Shown here: piece by piece, positions 5,179 to 56,501 of the stretch | Layout of the letters: every line of letters begins with the position of its first letter | How positions within the stretch are numbered: position 1 is the first letter of the stretch | Source: an uncultured Myxococcales bacterium | Lineage (GTDB): Bacteria; Myxococcota; Myxococcia; Myxococcales; UBA5297 | Reading direction: 5' to 3' | Assembly: GCA_937910285.1 (NCBI GenBank) | Contig: CALEOC010000253.1 | Span: forward strand, 90,817-154,816 | Length of the DNA: 64,000 bases | Program-made: the position numbers and the translations under genes | The notes under the pieces: generated by a model | The model's input: the letters and a program-made list of their open reading frames with translations, nothing else | What the model was told of the DNA's origin: nothing | Database searches by the model: none

Positions 5179-6096
5179 ATGCAGCCCAAGTTCTTCGTCG
5201 CGATGCTCGCAGTGGCGATCATCACCCCAGCGGTCGCGCTGGCCGACCACGAGGCGGTTCCGGTGGCCCCGCCCGGTGTCTACGTGGCGCCGGTGCCCGA
5301 CCACAGAGCCGCGGCCAAGGCGCATCGGGAGATGTACCGCTACCACAAGCGCGAACACCGCCGTCAGCGCCACGTGCGGCGCCACCTCCACGCCGCCGGG
5401 TACAGCTACCTCGCGCCCGTTCCCTTCGCTGCGCCCGTCGTTCCTGTGCCGCTGCCGGTCCCAGCGCCCATCGTGCCGATCCCGGTTCCCGTCCCCGCTC
5501 CGGCGCCGGTCTATGTCGCGCCGCCGCCGGTCTACGTCGCGCCTCCGCCCGCTCCGGTCGCGCAGGCCGCGGCCGAGCCGGACCTGTCGCGCACCATGCT
5601 CGGAGCGAACGTCCAGGCGCATCCTGACGGGGCCATCGTGGGAGTCACCGTCGTCACCGAGGGCAAGCGGCTCGGCTTGCACCTGGGGGCGAGCGGGGTC
5701 TTCGCCCGCGCCACAGACCGCTCGGCGGGGCTGGAGAGCCTCAAGCTCGTCGAGGCCCACCTGACGTACGCGCCGCTCTCCGGCTCGCGAGGCCGGGTGC
5801 GCCTCGAGGGCGGCGCCAGCGCGGCCTTCGGACCGACGACCGCGGCCATCGGCCCCGACGTGGGGCTCACCGGCGACTTGCGGCTCATCGGCTCTTTGGG
5901 CGTCGAGGGCGGCGCGCGGTACGCGCCGTTGCCGCACAAGCGCATCGAGACCTGGGCGGGTCTGTTCCTGGGCCTGGGCGCGCTGAGAGTCGAGGGTGGC
6001 TGGCGCAGCCTGTGGCTCGACGCGAAGGTGCTCGAGGGCATGCAGACCGTCGACTGTCTCCGCGGGCCGTACCTGGGCGCCACGCTCGTCTTCTGA
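5179..6096 (+). CDS. Secreted protein with proline-rich (PVP/APV) linker and Gly/Ala-rich C-terminal domain ending in Phe (possible outer-membrane beta-barrel)
   Basis: It has a signal peptide (MQPKFFVAMLAVAIITPAVALA), a PV-repeat region, and a C-terminal ...ATLVF. Confidence 0.5.
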   Translation: MQPKFFVAMLAVAIITPAVALADHEAVPVAPPGVYVAPVPDHRAAAKAHREMYRYHKREHRRQRHVRRHLHAAGYSYLAPVPFAAPVVPVPLPVPAPIVPIPVPVPAPAPVYVAPPPVYVAPPPAPVAQAAAEPDLSRTMLGANVQAHPDGAIVGVTVVTEGKRLGLHLGASGVFARATDRSAGLESLKLVEAHLTYAPLSGSRGRVRLEGGASAAFGPTTAAIGPDVGLTGDLRLIGSLGVEGGARYAPLPHKRIETWAGLFLGLGALRVEGGWRSLWLDAKVLEGMQTVDCLRGPYLGATLVF

Positions 6097-15099: not shown

Positions 15100-15590
15100 C
15101 GCACCGACGAAGAGCCGCATCGTCAAACCAACCCGGGACGAACCCCACATCGTGGCGTCGAGCGCGCCTTTTACCTCTGTGACGTGGAGAAGACCCGTAG
15201 TCGGCGCCCGGGTCGCGTGGACTCACCGGTCGTATTCGACAGCTCGAGGCCCTCCATCGCCCGGTATCCCGCGACGGCCACCGCGTTGAGTTGGAAGCTC
15301 GCCGCTGAGTCGCGCAACGGCCAAGCGATTCGGGCTCGCAGGCCTGCCGTGCCTCCGTGCTCCACGAGTCCGAAGTCACCTTCCACTTGAAGAAGGCGCC
15401 ACGGACGCACCGCCGCACCAAAGGTCCACCGCTGGCCGAGGTCGACGTTCGCGAATTGGGCGACACGGAGGCGCGCCCGCCAGAGAGAGTTGCAGCGCGA
15501 CGGTTTCCCGAAGCTCCTCGGCGCGCGCGTCTGCAGCGCTGCAGAGCAAGAACACTGCGATTCCGCATGCAGTCGCGATTCTCATCTGCC
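15100..15590 (-). pseudogene. Decayed gene for a secreted/outer-membrane beta-barrel-like protein
   Basis: The signal peptide MRIATACGIAVFLLCSAADARA is followed by a stop after ~70 codons. Barrel-like segments (RARIAWPL...FQLNAVAVAGYRAMEGLELS; VGFVPGWFDDAAL) continue in the two other frames. Confidence 0.3.
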
Positions 15591-15844
15591 CCTCATTCGA
15601 TGTCGGCCTTGGCGAAGAAGCTACCAGGCAGGGTCCCCAACGAGAATCAGGCTCCGGGATGGTCCCGGCCTCCGGACCGGGCCTTTCCGGAGTGGTCCAT
15701 TCCCGGGCGCGGGCGCACTTCCTCGCTTCACGCGGCCCGCCGCTCCGCTCCCCAGCGTCATCGAGCCCTGTCGCCGGCGCCCTCGCGGCGATCGCGCTTC
15801 GGACCCCATCTCTGCCGGATTGCCGCGAGCGCGCCCGCTGCTGG

Positions 15845-16100
15845 AGGCCTTCCGAACGGCCCTCAGCAGGTGCCACTCGCTTCCCGAAGCCTCCGGACCG
15901 CGAATCGCGCCGCACCCGACCGCTTTCGGAAGACTCCGCGATCGCATTTCGCGCGTGCCAATCGCCTTCGGAAGGCTCCGCCGCGCGATTGCCCGCGGCG
16001 CCCCCGCGTTCCGGAGGCCTGCCTTGGCGGTCGTGAGATCGTCGAAGGGAGCCTTCCAAACCAGATTGGCACAGAGCCAATCGCGTTCCGGGGCGCCGAG
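15845..16100. repeat. Degenerate tandem array of ~42-44-bp units containing TTCGGAAG(N)CTCCGCG...CGCGAT
   Basis: Three clear consecutive units lie at 15880-16008, with weaker flanking copies. The array is in the non-coding region upstream of the GT39-like gene. Confidence 0.45.
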
Positions 16101-16217
16101 AAGCGGTGGGCATCCGTGGACACCCGGTCCCAAGTCCCCGCCCGGCGATTGACGAGTCGTGACGGGCGGTTGGACGCCTTGGGGCTGTCCATTGGCCCCT
16201 CCGCCTATAATCCGCGC

Positions 16218-17774
16218 ATGTCTTCCAGCCGACGCAGCGTCGGCCTCGAGGTCGGGGCTGCGAGCTTCCTCTGCCTGCTCCTCGGCCTGCCGTCGCTGAC
16301 GTTCCCCATGGGCGTCGACCAGGGCACGCTCGGCGTCTGGGCCCAGCAGCTCGCGCGCGGTCTCGTGCCCTACCGCGACGTGTGGGACCAGCGCCCGCCG
16401 CTGATGCACCTGCTCCACTTTTTGGTCTACGCCGGCGGCGTGAGCGGCATGGAGCTGACCCGCGTCACCGACCTGCTCGTGCAGGTGGCGACCGCGGGCG
16501 TCCTCGGCCTGCTCGCGCTCCGCATGTTCGGCCGGGGTGCGGGCATCCTCGCGGGCGCTCTCTACGCCTACTGCTACTTCGGTCAGGCCGACTTCCACCA
16601 CACCTCGCAGCCCGACGGGCTCGTCGGTCTCTTCGCGGCGCTCGCGATCCTCTTCGCGCTGCAGTCGGGCCCGAAGCGCAGGCTGCTCTCGGGCGCGATG
16701 TTCGGCCTCGCCTTCCTCGCCAAATACCCGGCGGCGCTGCTCTTCCCGGTGCTCGTCGGGATTGCGCCCGAAGGCGGCGACCGGAAGCGGCGGGCGAGAC
16801 AAGCGATGGAGGTCGCGCTCGGCGCGGCTGTGCCCGTCCTCTCTCTCATCGTCTGGCTCGCCGCCACCGGCGCCCTGGGCGACTTCCTCATGGACACCGT
16901 GGTCTTCAACCTCGGCCACGGGAAGATCGGAACCGAGCGGCCGGAGCTCTCGATGCAGGCGCTCGAGGTGCTCGCCCAGCTCCTCAATCGCCGGGAAGTC
17001 CTCGCGCCGCTGCTGCTGCTGCCCCTCGCGCGACTCGAGCGGCGCTCGACGCTGGTCGCCGGCGCGTGGGGGCTCGTCTCGTTCTTGATGGTGCTCGTGC
17101 AGCGGAAGTTCTTCTCGTACCACTTCCTCCCGCTGGTCGCGCCGCTGGCCCTGCTGTCGGCGGGCGCCGTGCGCGGCCTGGCGCTGCGCTTGGTGGCCGA
17201 GCCCGCGCCACGCATGCGCAAGGTGACCTGGGCGATCGCGCTGGTGTTGACGCTGGGCGCCGGCTACCGCACTGCCGCGCGCTGGGGCCGAAGCGCCGTC
17301 GCCGCGGTGCAGGTTGCCTCCGACGACGAGGCCCGGAGCGCCTTCCACGCGCTACACGTCAACCCGTTCCTCGGCTTCTCGCTGGGCGACGACCTCGAGG
17401 CGGCCGCGGCCATCAAGGCGATGGCCAGGCCCGGGGACAGGCTCCTCGTCTTCGGTGCGCCGCTGCTCTACTACCTCTCGGAGCTGCAGCCCGCGACGCG
17501 CTTCATCATGGACAGCCCGTTCGTCGCCAAGGGCCATCCGGAGCGCTACGACCGCGAGCTCGAACGCGCGCTCGACTCCCGGCCGCCGGAGTTCGTCGCG
17601 GTCTACCTGCGCAACACCTGCCGCGCGGTGACCGGCTACGACGAGCCGAGCGCCTCGCTGCTGCGCCTGCAACCGAAGGCACAGCGGCGGCTCGCGGAGC
17701 TGGAGAAGGTGCTCGAGCTGGAGACGGTCGCCGTCTACGCGTCGCGCGAGCGGGCCGCGGCGCTCGCACCATAG
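16218..17774 (+). CDS. GT-C fold integral-membrane glycosyltransferase (GT39/ArnT/PMT-like)
   Basis: It is a polytopic membrane protein starting MSSSRRSVGLEVGAASFLCLLL, with the conserved N-terminal loop YRDVWDQRPPLMHLL. The upstream 860 codons of the annotated ORF are low-complexity and non-coding. A TATAAT sits 5 nt before the ATG. Confidence 0.5.
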   Translation: MSSSRRSVGLEVGAASFLCLLLGLPSLTFPMGVDQGTLGVWAQQLARGLVPYRDVWDQRPPLMHLLHFLVYAGGVSGMELTRVTDLLVQVATAGVLGLLALRMFGRGAGILAGALYAYCYFGQADFHHTSQPDGLVGLFAALAILFALQSGPKRRLLSGAMFGLAFLAKYPAALLFPVLVGIAPEGGDRKRRARQAMEVALGAAVPVLSLIVWLAATGALGDFLMDTVVFNLGHGKIGTERPELSMQALEVLAQLLNRREVLAPLLLLPLARLERRSTLVAGAWGLVSFLMVLVQRKFFSYHFLPLVAPLALLSAGAVRGLALRLVAEPAPRMRKVTWAIALVLTLGAGYRTAARWGRSAVAAVQVASDDEARSAFHALHVNPFLGFSLGDDLEAAAAIKAMARPGDRLLVFGAPLLYYLSELQPATRFIMDSPFVAKGHPERYDRELERALDSRPPEFVAVYLRNTCRAVTGYDEPSASLLRLQPKAQRRLAELEKVLELETVAVYASRERAAALAP

Positions 17775-17876
17775 CGGCCCTCGTGCAGGACGCGGTGGGA
17801 CGTGCGCCCCCCGAGTCGCTGCTCCACCGAGTCGACGTTTGCCGGGGGAGCCCAGCAAACGGGACGCCCCGGAAAG

Positions 17877-18067
17877 GCGTCCGGGACATCGGAAATCGCG
17901 TCCGGGACATCCGAAATCGCGTCGGGGACATCCGAGATCGCGTCCGGGACATCCGGAATCGCGTCCGGGACATTGGAAATCGCGTCCGGGACATCCGAGA
18001 TCGCGTCCGGGACATCCGGAAATCGCGTCCGGGACATCCGAGATCGCGTCCGGGACATCCGGAAATC
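17877..18067. repeat. Tandem array A: 9 copies of 21-22-bp unit GCGTCCGGGACATCCGAAATC
   Basis: It is a near-perfect tandem repeat. Its reverse complement matches array B (~14/21 identity). Confidence 0.85.
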
Positions 18068-18096
18068 GCGTCCGGGACGTCTCATCCGCGGTGATG

Positions 18097-18201
18097 CATG
18101 TCCCCGCTGCCCTTCGGCATGTCCCGCGAGCCCTTCGGCATGTCCCGCGAGCCCTTCGGCTTGTCCCGCGAGCCCTTCGGCTTGTCCCGCGAGCCCTTGC
18201 A
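18097..18201. repeat. Tandem array B: 5 copies of 21-bp unit GCATGTCCCGCGAGCCCTTCG (inverted relative to array A)
   Basis: It is a tandem repeat. Together with array A it forms a ~320-bp imperfect inverted repeat centred at ~18085, between two convergent genes. Confidence 0.85.
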
Positions 18202-18207
18202 TCTGTA

Positions 18208-20514
18208 TCAGCGGGGGTTCATCGACGAGCTCGAGCGGCTCCGGCGCCGTCCGGCGAACGCCAGGCCGCCCATCACGAACAGCGCGACCGAGGTGATCGC
18301 CGCGCCCGCGACGAACGACCTGGGACGGTAGACCAGCTCGACGCGATGCTGGCCCGCGGAGACTGGAACGGCGCGGGCGAGATAGTCGGCGCGATAGAGC
18401 GGGGCGGGCGCGCTGTCGACCCGGGCTTGCCATCCGGGGAACCAGGAGTCGCTCACCACGAGCACGCCGTCGCCGCAGGCCTCGACGTCGACGACCATCC
18501 TGTTCGCCATGGCCTCTTCGATGCTGGCGGTCGAACCCGCGCAGTCGGTGAGAGAGGGCAGGGGCTCGCCCGGATCGAGCTCGAGGAAGGCGTATTCGCG
18601 CAGGGGACGGCTCGGATCGAGCAGCGCCGCGCGCGCCTCGGCCTCCGACGCGGCGACGGCTCGGTGAACGACCAACGCGCGCGGGAAGGCCGTGCGGCTG
18701 CGATAGAGGTTGGGGATCCGGAAGAGCGCCTCGTCGGCATCATCGTCGTCGCCGCCGGCGCGCTCGAGGCCGGAGAAGGGCGCCTCGCCGCGGCGCACGT
18801 ACCAGGCGACCGAGGCGAAGTCGAATAGGGCGCGCTCGTCGTCGGCGAGCACCGACGCGAGCCGGCGCGGCGCGCGCGGCCCCTCGCCTTCGATGCTCGA
18901 GAGCCGCTCTTCGACATGCCGGTTGCCGACGAACGCCTCGCGGCTCAGGCGCACGTAGCGCTTGAGCTGCTCGCGCTGCGAGGCCGATTCGGTGAGCGCC
19001 TCGGCCTCGTCGCGGTGCTCGGAGCCGCGGCTGAAGCGGGTCCACGGCTCGGCGCGCATCAGCTCGGCGAGGCGCGAGGGGGTCGAGAGCGCCTCGGCGG
19101 TCGCGTAGAGCGGCCGGCCGAAGAGGTTGTGCGCGAGGAGCACCTCGAGCGCCGTCAGCCCGACGAGGACGGCCCGCGCGGCCTGCGCCCGCGCCCGGGG
19201 TCGGCCGGGAAGGAACCCGAGGAGCAAGCCCGCCAGGCCGACGAGGACCGCCGCGAGCAGCGCGCCCAGCCCGGCCTGTCCGCCTGTGGAAGCGATGCGC
19301 GCCGCGGCGACGAGCGAGGCCGCGAAGAGCCCGACGCCCGCGGGTCTCAGCCAGCGGGGCCTGCGGCGCGCCCAGGCGACGAGCTGATCGAAGCCGAGCG
19401 CCGCGAGCGGAGCCAGCACCGCCGTCGCGGCGACGAGGTACTTCACCGGGAAGCGGAAGAGCCGGAAGGGGAAGAGCCCGAGCGCGAAGGACGAGGGCGC
19501 GAAGTTGGCGCCGAGCGACAGCAGCGCGAGCAGCAGACCGGCGACGGCGAAGGGCAGGGCGCGCCGGCGCCGCGCACGACCGGCGAGCGCGAGCGCGGTC
19601 AACGCGCAGAACAGGCCGCCGAGGTGCAGGGTGATGACGAGCCGCTGCGCCTGCGCATCGGGCGGCGCGGGGTTTGCCCCGGAGACGAGCGTCGCGAGGT
19701 CCGGCAGACTCGCCGACCACGCGAGCGCCGCGTCCGCAGGAGGCTGCTCGACCTGCCCCGCGAGCTCGGCCGCGGGGACCAGCGCGATGGCCGCGAGCGC
19801 GGCGCCCCAAGCCAATCCGAGCGCCGTGCCCGCGACGGGTTTCGGGCGCGGCTTGCGGCTCCAGACGGAGACGAGTAGCGCGGCGATGCCCTGGGCGAGC
19901 AGGATCTCCGGCGAGCCGCACAACGCCGATGCTCCCGCGCTCGCCGCGAGCAGGAGCAGGGCCGAGGGGCGCGGCCCGCGGCGCAGGTCGAGCACCGCGG
20001 CGAGCAGCGGCCCGGTCCAGGCGAGCGCGTTGGCCATGTTCTGCTCGTTGCCGAGGTAGGCGTACATCACGCTCAGCCCGAAGGCCGAGCCCGCGAGCAG
20101 GCTCCCGAGCCGCGAGCCGCCGAGCCGGCGCCCGACCGCGGCGGTCCCCGCGACGGCCAGCGCGACGTGGAGCAGGTGCTCGACGGTGATCGCCCAGACC
20201 GGACCGAAGACGAGGACGGCGAGCACCCGCGGCGGATAGAAGGCCTGGGCCTGGACGGTCGCGGCGAACGGATGGCCGAGCCAGAGATACGGGTTCCACA
20301 GCGGCAGCTCGCCGTTGCTCAGACACTCGGCGAGGAAGGCGGCGTCCGGGATGAAGAGCCGGAAGATGTCCCGGCCCGCGAGCGCTTCGCCGGAGAGGAC
20401 CGGGCGATAGGCCCACGCGGCGGCGCCGAGCACGGCCAGCGCGCCGAGCGCACGCCTCGCGATCCGGAGGCGTCGCGGGGAGCGCTGTACGTCGGCCGAG
20501 CTCATGGCCGGCAC
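18208..20514 (-). CDS. YfhO-family polytopic membrane protein (putative glycosyltransferase)
   Basis: The N-terminal signature is ...GELPLWNPYLWLGHPFAATVQAQAFYP. It has more than 12 predicted TM helices and a C-terminal soluble domain ending ...YRADYLARAVPVSAGQHRVELVYRP. Confidence 0.6.
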   Translation of the reverse strand: MPAMSSADVQRSPRRLRIARRALGALAVLGAAAWAYRPVLSGEALAGRDIFRLFIPDAAFLAECLSNGELPLWNPYLWLGHPFAATVQAQAFYPPRVLAVLVFGPVWAITVEHLLHVALAVAGTAAVGRRLGGSRLGSLLAGSAFGLSVMYAYLGNEQNMANALAWTGPLLAAVLDLRRGPRPSALLLLAASAGASALCGSPEILLAQGIAALLVSVWSRKPRPKPVAGTALGLAWGAALAAIALVPAAELAGQVEQPPADAALAWSASLPDLATLVSGANPAPPDAQAQRLVITLHLGGLFCALTALALAGRARRRRALPFAVAGLLLALLSLGANFAPSSFALGLFPFRLFRFPVKYLVAATAVLAPLAALGFDQLVAWARRRPRWLRPAGVGLFAASLVAAARIASTGGQAGLGALLAAVLVGLAGLLLGFLPGRPRARAQAARAVLVGLTALEVLLAHNLFGRPLYATAEALSTPSRLAELMRAEPWTRFSRGSEHRDEAEALTESASQREQLKRYVRLSREAFVGNRHVEERLSSIEGEGPRAPRRLASVLADDERALFDFASVAWYVRRGEAPFSGLERAGGDDDDADEALFRIPNLYRSRTAFPRALVVHRAVAASEAEARAALLDPSRPLREYAFLELDPGEPLPSLTDCAGSTASIEEAMANRMVVDVEACGDGVLVVSDSWFPGWQARVDSAPAPLYRADYLARAVPVSAGQHRVELVYRPRSFVAGAAITSVALFVMGGLAFAGRRRSRSSSSMNPR

Positions 20515-54855: not shown

Positions 54856-56501
54856 TGGCGACAAGGCTCACGCAGGAGATGACCGACCAGGCGGTGCGCT
54901 CCGCGGTTCGCGCGGTGCGCCAGGAGGCGTGCGGCCGTCCGGACAACGGCTGGCGCGGCGGCAAGCCGATAGAGGACCCGGAGAAGACCAAGCGCTGGGG
55001 GTTCGTGACCGCCAAGCCCTCCGAGTACCTCGTCCACATGCGCCGCGGGAAGATCCTCGGGCGCAGCAGCGGCCAGGGGGCGAGCTGCTTCAAGTGGCCC
55101 TGGGACTCGGTGGCGATCATCCCCACCACCCTCCAGCACATCTACTTCGCGGCCGACCAGGTGACCTCGGAGAAGGTCGGCGTCCAGGTCAAAGGGCTGG
55201 CGGTCTACCGTGTCGCGAGGCCCGAGCTGACGGTGCGCATGCTCAACTTCAGCTTCCCCGAGCGCGCTCAGCAGAAGCTCGCCGAGACGCTGGGCGACAT
55301 GTTCATCGGCGCGGTGCGCCGGCTGGTCGCGAACCTCACCGTCGAGGAGTGCCTGGTGCGACGCAAGGAGGCGCTCGCCGCCTTCCTGATGGCCGAGATC
55401 GCCCCGGTCGTCTCCGGCGCCGGCCGCGCCAGCGACAGCACCGACCGCGGCTGGGGCGTGGTCATCGATACCATCGAGATCCAGGACGTCGTCGTGCTCA
55501 GCGAGGCGGTCTTCGCCAACATGCAGGCGCCCTATCGCAATCAGCTCATGCTCAAGGCGCGCGAGGCCGAGCTGGCGCGCGAGCGCGAGCTCGAGGAGAC
55601 GCAGGCGCGCGCCGACGCCCAGCTTCGCGAGCTGCGCGCGCAGGCCGAGACCGCCGCGGCGCAGGCCGAGTCGGCCGCGCAGATGAAGCGGCTGGCGGCC
55701 CAGACGCAGGCCGAGCAGGCCAGAGTGCAGGCCGAGCGTGAGCTCGAGCACGCCAAGCTCGAGGCGGACCGCGAGCTCGAGCGGCGCAAGCTCGAGAAGG
55801 AGGCCGAGCTCTCGCGCGCGCGGGCGGAGAAGGACCGTGAGGCCCAGGCCTACCGGGCCCGGGGCGAAGCCGAGGCGCGCAAGGTGAAGGCCGAGGCGTC
55901 GGCCCACGCGGCCGAGGCCGAAGCGCTCGCGGGGGAGCGCGCCCAGGAGCTTCGGGCGCAGTCGGCGCACAACCAGCTGTCGCGCGAGCACGAGCTGGCG
56001 AAGACGAAGCTCGCCCACCAGACCGAGCAGGCGCGCGAGCGGGCGATGGCGGAGCGTGAGGCGGCCGAGGCCGAGGACGCGCTCGTCGCCGAGCGTGCAC
56101 AGCGCGCCCTCGAGCTGCAGAAGAGCGAGGCCGCCTCCTCGGCCGAGGTGCGCCGGCTCGAGATGGAGCTGACGCGGCTCGAGGGCGAGCTGAAGGCCTC
56201 GGTGGCCGCGCGCCAGCGCGAGGTCGACAACACCATCTCTCTCGAGAAGCTGCAGAGCGACTTCGTCAACAAGGCCCTGCCCGAGATCGCCCACGTGCTG
56301 CAGCAGCAGTTCAGCAAGGTGGAGATCATCGCCGGCGCGAACGAGAACCCCTTCGGCTTCCTGGTCCACGCCTTCGAGGGCGTGATGGAGATGGCCAGGT
56401 GGGGCGGGCTCTCCTCGGCGGTGACCACCCCCGGCGCTCTGACCCGGCCGCCGGCGCGGGCGAACGGGGCGCACCCGGTCGTCGAGAAGAAGCCCTCGTA
56501 G
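54856..56501 (+). CDS. SPFH/band-7 flotillin-like protein with long EA-rich coiled coil
   Basis: The N-terminal SPFH domain is followed by ~250 aa of A/E/R/Q heptads (flotillin domain). AGGAGG lies 6 nt before the ATG. Confidence 0.7.

Follow-up and report, generated by a model that had tools for sequence, protein, structure and literature searches.

Two opposed arrays of 21-bp units between convergent membrane-protein genes of an uncultured myxobacterium: a probable non-coding, lineage-specific composite minisatellite

The stretch analyzed here, which we call the window, comprises 64,000 nucleotides (64 kb) of contig CALEOC010000253.1 (assembly GCA_937910285.1, positions 90,817 to 154,816, forward strand) from an uncultured Myxococcales bacterium. 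In this stretch, the genes for a PMT_2 membrane glycosyltransferase and a YfhO-family membrane protein converge, and the spacer between their stops holds two tandem arrays of 21-bp units, which run in opposed orientations on either side of a short centre (Table 1). The arrays begin 82 bp past the PMT_2 stop and 7 bp past the YfhO stop. The original prediction, made from the letters alone, had placed this block between the stops of a GT39-like gene (17774) and a YfhO-like gene (18208), and the flanks are as it stated. In public gene calls, the PMT_2 gene starts at 16116 (552 aa).

Table 1. Features of the array-bearing spacer and its flanking genes (positions in the window)
Feature	Position	Strand	Basis
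PMT_2 membrane glycosyltransferase (GT-C fold, ArnT/PMT-like), left flank	15357..17774	+	Open reading frame (ORF) list; Pfam PF13231, E 2.8e-10; called gene in L012/L061
Short inverted repeat with 11-nt arms and 4-nt loop, no T-run, in the spacer after the PMT_2 stop	17836..17861		Repeat search
Degenerate outermost unit AAACGGGACGCCCCGGAAAG, left edge of array 1	17857..17876	+	Sequence; first copy of the direct repeat at 68% identity
Array 1, nine units with core GCGTCCGGGACATC	17877..18067	+	Tandem Repeats Finder, pattern search, unit parsing
Variant terminal unit GCGTCCGGGACGTC (at 18068) and 14-nt centre TCATCCGCGGTGAT	18068..18095	+	Sequence; alignment to L023
Array 2, five 21-bp units	18096..18200	+	Tandem Repeats Finder, pattern search, alignments
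YfhO-family membrane protein, right flank; TGA stop at 18208-18210	18208..20514	-	ORF list; Pfam PF09586; public protein P0001 100% identical

These are by far the two strongest tandem arrays of the window. Tandem Repeats Finder scored array 1 at 330 (17877 to 18078, period 21, 9.5 copies, 90% matches) and array 2 at 169 (18096 to 18198, period 21, 4.9 copies, 95% matches), and every other array at 92 or less. A 21-mer pattern search allowing up to three mismatches matched the array-1 unit nine times and the array-2 unit four times, with 0 matches expected from 100 shuffles. Parsed unit by unit, array 1 consists of nine units with the consensus GCGTCCGGGACATCCGAAATC and array 2 of five 21-bp units with the consensus GCATGTCCCGCGAGCCCTTCG, as the first reading had reported. 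Each array-1 unit is made up of a 14-nt core and a variable part of 7 to 8 nt, which occurs in the variants CGGAAATC, CCGAAATC, CCGAGATC, CCGGAATC, TGGAAATC, and CCGGAAATC. Seven of the nine units are 21 bp long, and those at 18003 and 18046 each reach 22 bp through one additional base within CCGGAAATC. The final four units form a higher-order repeat, a 43-bp double unit that is duplicated. The block as a whole has a GC content of 68%.

The units of array 2, which can be written GC(A/T)TGTCCCGCGAGCCCTTCG, hold the core ATGTCCCG, which is inverted relative to that of array 1. The mutual inversion of the two arrays proposed in the original prediction stands insofar as an inverted core is common to both; the claimed agreement of about 14 of 21 positions is too high. 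The best ungapped circular match between one unit and the reverse complement of the other is 13/21 (P of about 0.03 with shuffled units), compared with 10/21 in direct orientation, and the longest word that the units have in common in inverted orientation is CGGGACAT. Likewise, the "palindromic centre" has some palindromy, but only as a weak and imperfect palindrome (GGGAC...GTCCC plus CATC...GATG). The unit itself contains the near-palindrome GTCC-G-GGAC, with 4-bp arms about a single base.

Besides the window, the block was found in three further assembly sources. Contig L012 (NCBI GCA_002408385.1) matches the window at 100% identity to the left and right of the block and has a run of N within array 1; L013 (ENA ERZ724025) is 99.3% identical, with both arrays present; L014 and L062 (ENA ERZ27283037) approach the arrays from opposite sides and stop inside array 2. 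Such recurrence disposes of the possibility, raised at the outset, that the block is an assembly artefact. L012, L013, and L062 likewise contain the 22-bp unit, which thus does not stem from a homopolymer error in a single assembly. In these short-read assemblies of genomes at least 99.3% identical, array 1 has nine units in the window and seven in L013 and L062 (L012 has the gap here), and the difference amounts to exactly one 43-bp double unit, in line with the variable copy number that had been suggested. The unit number is a possible strain-typing marker for this uncultured myxobacterial population.

In close relatives, the arrays are dispensable. In two contigs (L015 and L016), YfhO is 88% identical to the window protein and has the same convergent PMT_2 neighbor, with coding DNA 89 to 91% identical, and yet their 272-bp spacer has no arrays, only a single unit-like stretch adjoining the YfhO stop. 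Homology between the window and L015 restarts at window position 18172 and takes in the final array-2 unit together with the 12 bp preceding the YfhO stop. The two spacers differ by the replacement of about 390 bp with 222 unrelated bp, and there is no clean filled/empty site. Two histories would fit: array 2 expanded here from a unit-like sequence already in place, or the array collapsed in the relative and left a single unit behind. At three more distant YfhO loci for which DNA is available, the downstream spacers are 24 to 105 bp long. The array-less spacer of L015 (3790 to 3930) is filled by a different short dispersed intergenic repeat (...CCCTCGACTCCG...GCTCG(C/G)GATGACCGG), which is absent from the window. 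The C-terminal tail of YfhO also differs: before the stop it reads ...RRRSRSSSSMNPR in the window (18208 to 18260) and ...QRRSRSRS in L015 (3690 to 3725). A small indel between the two shifts the YfhO stop, and thus the gene end beside the arrays is itself unstable.

The block is non-coding. Six-frame translation showed that stops or the 22-bp units interrupt or displace every frame across it: the two 22-bp units make a recurrent peptide (e.g., ISDVPDA on the minus strand) jump among all three frames, and the YfhO frame, when extended beyond its TGA, meets a further stop in the centre. Long ORFs crossing the block have no Pfam match, and a six-frame concatenated query against 5.8 billion proteins yielded only three weak, low-complexity matches to YhgE/Pip-type membrane proteins. 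Public gene calls leave the spacer empty save for a single call of 21 residues where contig L062 is cut, and in the L015 ortholog the stretch resembling the array-2 unit lies in another frame relative to the YfhO stop. The broken frames, the lack of a Pfam match, and the absence of the block from the orthologous spacer together lead to this conclusion and all but remove the alternative of a conserved coding frame that had accompanied the original prediction. The spurious ORFs of 164 to 329 aa on both strands, which were recognized there as artifacts, should stay unannotated as proteins.

We looked for related arrays by scanning one genome per species for two exact cores and metagenomes for three exact cores. 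Three contigs from a fermentation metagenome (L022, L023, and L033; GC content of 0.63 to 0.73) align to window positions 17901 to 18178 with 85% identity over 236 to 279 bp, an alignment that runs from array 1 through the GACGTC variant unit and the centre into array 2. Their parts follow the order of the window: units GCGTCCGGGACATCGGGAA(A/T)C, of which the last has 22 bp, lead into the variant unit GCGTCCGGGACGTCTCAC and a centre with GATCCATGTCCCC at its end, after which come four inverted units with (A/G/T)TGTCCCG. Their flanks have nothing in common with those of the window. In L022 and L023, a cobalamin riboswitch and a TonB-dependent receptor lie downstream of the composite, and the named relatives nearest to this receptor come from Myxococcales and Anaeromyxobacter. 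L033 matches these two contigs over about 385 bp at 95 to 96% and then diverges abruptly into a different gene. A weaker version, ending in GGGACGTC and inverted GTGTCCCGG, lies between an M16 peptidase gene and prmA (L037). Thus, the same composite occurs at unrelated Myxococcota loci, which indicates a small dispersed repeat family rather than a local accident. The question of whether the 21-mer is dispersed or unique has a divided answer: in the 64-kb window it is confined to this locus, and related composites lie at unrelated loci on other Myxococcota contigs. The original prediction had not anticipated such recurrence of the composite as a whole.

At the TonB receptor locus, as at the YfhO locus, presence varies. 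A 56%-identity ortholog of the receptor operon (L066 and L067) has the riboswitch and no arrays, and in the filled/empty comparison L022 and L066 have only the riboswitch in common. The riboswitch (Rfam RF00174, 73 to 80 bits; L023 601 to 823, L063 262 to 484, L066 3736 to 3952) precedes the receptor gene and an ABC-type uptake operon, with the composite just upstream in L022 and L023 only. The repeat CCCTCGACTCCG...GATGACCGG that fills the L015 spacer also flanks the arrays here (L023 400 to 480 and L063 60 to 160). Contigs break within the arrays in L014, L023, L033, and L062, whereas L063 and L064 begin just past them; in total, seven contigs terminate in or next to such arrays. The block breaks, or may collapse, short-read assemblies of this lineage.

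Arrays in a single orientation with the same extended core were found in one metagenome-assembled genome each of Kofleriaceae (L005, with a 24-bp unit) and Polyangiaceae (L007, L043, and L045) and in two Abditibacterium genomes (four units in L002 and ten in L003). The Abditibacterium unit, the 21-bp GCGTCCGGGACATCCGTCACC (four copies at L002 2407 to 2480, ten at L003 7010 to 7200), immediately precedes a gene for a right-handed beta-helix protein and shares its frame (VTDVPDA); it may extend the protein variably at the N terminus or act as a promoter-spacing repeat. No neighbor gene is common to the arrays: all-against-all BLASTP of the ORFs within 3.5 kb gave only redundant loci and repeat-derived ORFs.

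Matches to the core outside this set are mostly background from unrelated tandem repeats, of a kind recoverable by any 10- to 11-mer. They came from Abditibacteriota, Bacteroidota, Firmicutes, Actinobacteria, Chloroflexi, and viruses, with GC contents of 0.40 to 0.73 and periods of 11 to 33 bp. In the viral collection, the real core was found at three loci, its reversed version at one, and two shuffled cores at one and four, and across the broad match set the bases beside the forced core are unconserved. A universal motif, at first read from the arrays of many phyla, was abandoned, as both the shuffled-core controls and the unconserved neighboring bases point to background. Rfam gave only sub-threshold noise in the window (riboswitch and tRNA matches were confined to related loci), plasmid and phage collections gave no match, and a literature search for the core returned only primers. 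Hence, the block remains what it was at first sight, not recognizable as a member of a known repeat family.

Taken together, we regard the block as a non-coding, lineage-specific composite minisatellite, in which two opposed arrays of 21-bp units with the core CGGGACAT flank a short conserved centre, probably with no dedicated function; we put the probability of this reading at roughly 0.55. Both arms may derive from an ancient inverted duplication, and they would gain and lose units through slipped-strand mispairing or unequal recombination between units, while the family would have been copied or spread among intergenic spacers by some route. At the site described here, the element would probably have no dedicated function and be only a structured spacer, prone to recombination, where the 3' ends of convergent genes meet. 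At present, there is no evidence that it does anything for the cell.

Several observations weigh against this reading. About five of the seven distinct array-1 variants fall in the 7- to 8-nt spacer and not in the 14-nt core (binomial P of about 0.045 by our estimate), and the core GCGTCCGGGACATC is also the part retained between loci, although this retention is inflated by the ascertainment of a core-based search. Core retention hints at a sequence-specific constraint that a purely neutral repeat would not predict. The differences in unit number come from short-read assemblies and may partly reflect collapse. Within the 64-kb window there are no further copies of the core beyond one chance-level 8-mer. 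Dispersal to unrelated loci would need a mechanism, and no terminal inverted repeat (TIR) or target-site duplication (TSD) was recognized by eye, no transposase was found, and within the window no REP-associated tyrosine transposase (RAYT) was found.

A constraint on the core would be explained if the block were a phased protein-binding array, in which about 14 GGGACAT half-sites, spaced by two helical turns (21 to 22 bp), are cooperatively bound by an iteron-, centromere-, or operator-type protein encoded elsewhere. The period of 21 to 22 bp, the near-palindrome within the unit, and the retention of the core next to a variable spacer, both within and between loci, are consistent with such binding, and in one related array (L034) the unit is a perfect 15-bp palindrome, GATGTCCCGGACATC. 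However, neither in the window nor at any homologous locus is there a rep, par, or regulator gene beside the arrays, the 68% GC block offers no AT-rich unwinding region, and nothing that would need regulation lies between two gene ends. The palindrome has no further copies in the window, and, as described above, close relatives do without the arrays. Therefore, we consider such an array possible, if unlikely.

Two viral contigs bear on the same question. In L049 (1590 to 1750; IMGVR_UViG_3300025970_000009) and L048 (5740 to 5910; IMGVR_UViG_3300005264_001131), six to eight palindromes TTATGTCC(G/C)GGACATAA, spaced by 21 to 33 bp, directly follow homologous replication-initiator genes (Pfam DnaA_N; phrog_26369, E 4e-12 and 3e-9). 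The palindromes give way to an AT-rich stretch and then, in L049, to a ParB-like gene, and these arrays look like the iteron-type origin of a phage-plasmid. The occurrence of TATGTCC(G/C)GGACATA arrays directly past an initiator gene might favor a binding role for the window arrays too. On the other hand, the viral arrays share with the window only the core that was searched for, and shuffled cores yield as many viral matches. A broader version, in which the composite as a whole is a protein-recognized module whose opposed, phased GGGACAT arrays are bound by a Rep-, transposase-, or centromere-binding-type protein of Myxococcota that mobilizes the element or forms a decoy (handcuffing) or barrier complex, seems to us rather improbable. 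Were the core to prove a protein-binding site, it would point to a further DNA-binding or mobilizing activity in Myxococcota.

Mobilization might also take the form of a transposase-less derivative of an insertion sequence (IS), similar to a miniature inverted-repeat transposable element (MITE), whose arrays would be multiplied subterminal transposase-binding repeats, whose internal gene would have been lost, and which would be mobilized in trans. What suggests such an origin is the core pointing inward on both sides, the occurrence of the composite at unrelated loci and its absence from orthologous spacers, and an abrupt right boundary common to F1 and F2. A parallel is L024 (111 to 1505; Ga0126311_10142781), a complete IS481-family insertion sequence adjoining a tRNA gene. 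Its ends (TGT..ACA) are unusually repeat-rich, with four direct copies of TCCGGGACATGCTTGAC on the left and two inverted copies on the right. Yet L024 shares with the window solely the 10-mer required by the search, and tblastn with its transposase detected no transposase in the window or at any other array locus. The L024 ends, like the viral iteron arrays, are analogies to the window arrays and not homologues. In addition, no TIR or TSD was recognized around the window element, the comparison with L015 reveals a replacement and not a clean insertion, the unit that closes array 2 appears to be ancestral here, and nine near-identical units exceed what known IS ends carry. We therefore view this origin as doubtful.

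At the RNA level, the position of the arrays near both stops has led us to consider that read-through transcripts fold into a structured 3' region that blocks read-through or exonucleases, or that GGA-rich minus-strand RNA titrates an RNA-binding protein. Related arrays are likewise found just downstream of gene ends, and predicted RNA folds of the 386-nt region are more stable than those of shuffled sequences (-194 kcal/mol, z of -3.2, for the plus strand; -200 kcal/mol, z of -4.0, for the minus strand), as is the inner part (z of -3.1). Even so, the homologous element in L022 folds no better than shuffles (z of -1.3), and the complementarity between the arms beyond the 7- to 8-nt core (CCGAA/TTCGG in the window) does not hold in L022 and L023. 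There is no Rfam match, and between 17300 and 18700 no hairpin-plus-T-run terminator was found on either strand (0 sites). The bidirectional terminator envisaged in the original prediction thus lacks an intrinsic-terminator consensus, and the absence of the arrays from close relatives also speaks against an RNA role, which we judge quite unlikely. No sigma-70-like promoter consensus was found. A CsrA-type GGA sponge on the minus strand was rejected because the GGA motifs fall in stems rather than loops and nothing else supported it.

Nor do the predictions support the one very long hairpin or cruciform that had been proposed. Owing to the near-palindrome GTCC-G-GGAC, most of the predicted pairing of array 1 is within the array, and the apex lies off centre; the DNA fold is no better than that of shuffles (z of -1.8) and its ensemble is diffuse. 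Finally, a coding repeat (a heptad low-complexity tail or a small protein built of ISDVPDA, ASGTSEI, or KGSRDKP, such as a C-terminal extension made by read-through of YfhO) can practically be set aside: array 2 is in frame with YfhO past its TGA and high in GC at third codon positions (GC3), several related arrays keep a DVPD(A/G) frame open, and in Abditibacterium this frame runs into the downstream beta-helix gene, but GC3 frame plots of related arrays are uninformative within low-complexity repeats, and against these points stand the two frame shifts confirmed in other assemblies, the in-frame stops at 18208 and in the centre, the 22-, 22-, and 21-bp units in array 2 of a homologue, the different frame of the unit-like stretch in the ortholog, and the database and gene-call results given above.

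The wider surroundings of the block add a few observations. Between 1 and 17.8 kb, the ORFs that pass a coding filter are on the plus strand; between 18.2 and 36 kb, most are on the minus strand. This switch of orientation at the arrays suggested a replication terminus or origin, an idea dropped because the GC skew follows the coding strand, which is C-rich, and not a replication pattern. Precomputed Pfam matches to the public gene calls place a PhdYeFM antitoxin/PIN toxin pair at about 25.9 to 26.5 kb (L012 1 to 553), at a distance of some 8 kb from the arrays. Other tandem repeats in the window, at 5496 to 5563 and 55555 to 55811 (period of 21 to 33, scores of 58 to 92; e.g., CGCGCCGCCGCCGGTCTACGT in 3.2 copies), are probably coding repeats, being inside high-GC3 ORFs.

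How does the block compare with known systems? It is not a CRISPR array: its units abut directly, and the 7- to 8-nt variable parts are variants of one sequence. It has neither the hairpin and T-run of an intrinsic (Rho-independent) terminator nor the continuous frame of a protein-coding repeat, and no parA/parB or parM/parR is among the called neighbors, as would be the case for a partition centromere of the parC/parS type. Iterons, such as the seven 22-bp repeats of the R6K gamma origin, resemble it in being direct repeats of about 21 to 22 bp, a spacing of two helical turns, in which a conserved core adjoins a variable spacer, and the presumed iterons of L048 and L049 even have the same palindrome, ATGTCC-S-GGACAT, although their likeness to the window ends at the searched core. 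Unlike an iteron origin, however, the block is chromosomal, lies between two glycosyltransferase genes with ordinary chromosomal genes beyond them, and has no adjacent rep gene, AT-rich unwinding element, or par genes. Subterminal arrays of insertion sequences and MITEs, as in L024, have direct sites of about 20 bp at one end and inverted sites at the other, and their presence also varies at orthologous sites. In contrast, the window has nine and five near-identical units, only about 28 bp between the arms, and no transposase or recognizable TIR or TSD, and no autonomous element with matching ends came to light, since a tblastn search with the transposase of L024 gave no match in the window or the other loci.

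Closer likenesses are found among dispersed intergenic repeats. As in bacterial interspersed mosaic elements (BIMEs) and REPINs, the motif forms a dispersed intergenic mosaic, occurs in both orientations, sits at 3' ends and between convergent genes, and is lineage specific and variable. The repetitive extragenic palindromic (REP) units of those elements are self-folding palindromes of 20 to 40 nt that alternate in orientation and recur tens to hundreds of times in a genome, whereas here the palindrome is 4 + 4 bp about one base, the folds pair different units with one another, the two orientations are segregated in two blocks, and there is one locus in 64 kb. Minisatellites of the variable-number tandem repeat (VNTR) type built of mycobacterial interspersed repetitive units (MIRUs) also consist of non-coding, head-to-tail units in intergenic spacers by gene ends, differ in unit number between near-identical genomes (here nine versus seven in short-read assemblies, where collapse is possible), have related units at several unrelated loci (here on other contigs, L022/L023, L033, and L037), and require no function. 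They differ in that MIRUs are 40 to 100 bp long as opposed to 21 to 22 bp and in that here two opposed blocks surround a conserved centre, at one locus in the 64-kb window, and the host clade is uncultured Myxococcota. By analogy, then, the element appears to work most like MIRU-type VNTRs and BIME mosaics, being intergenic, placed at gene ends, dispersed, and variable. The best-supported assignment is to a new family, of which we found no description, within the general class of bacterial dispersed intergenic repeats. Few such repeats are known outside Enterobacteria, Mycobacteria, and Neisseria, and the arrays described here would add a myxobacterial family to that class.

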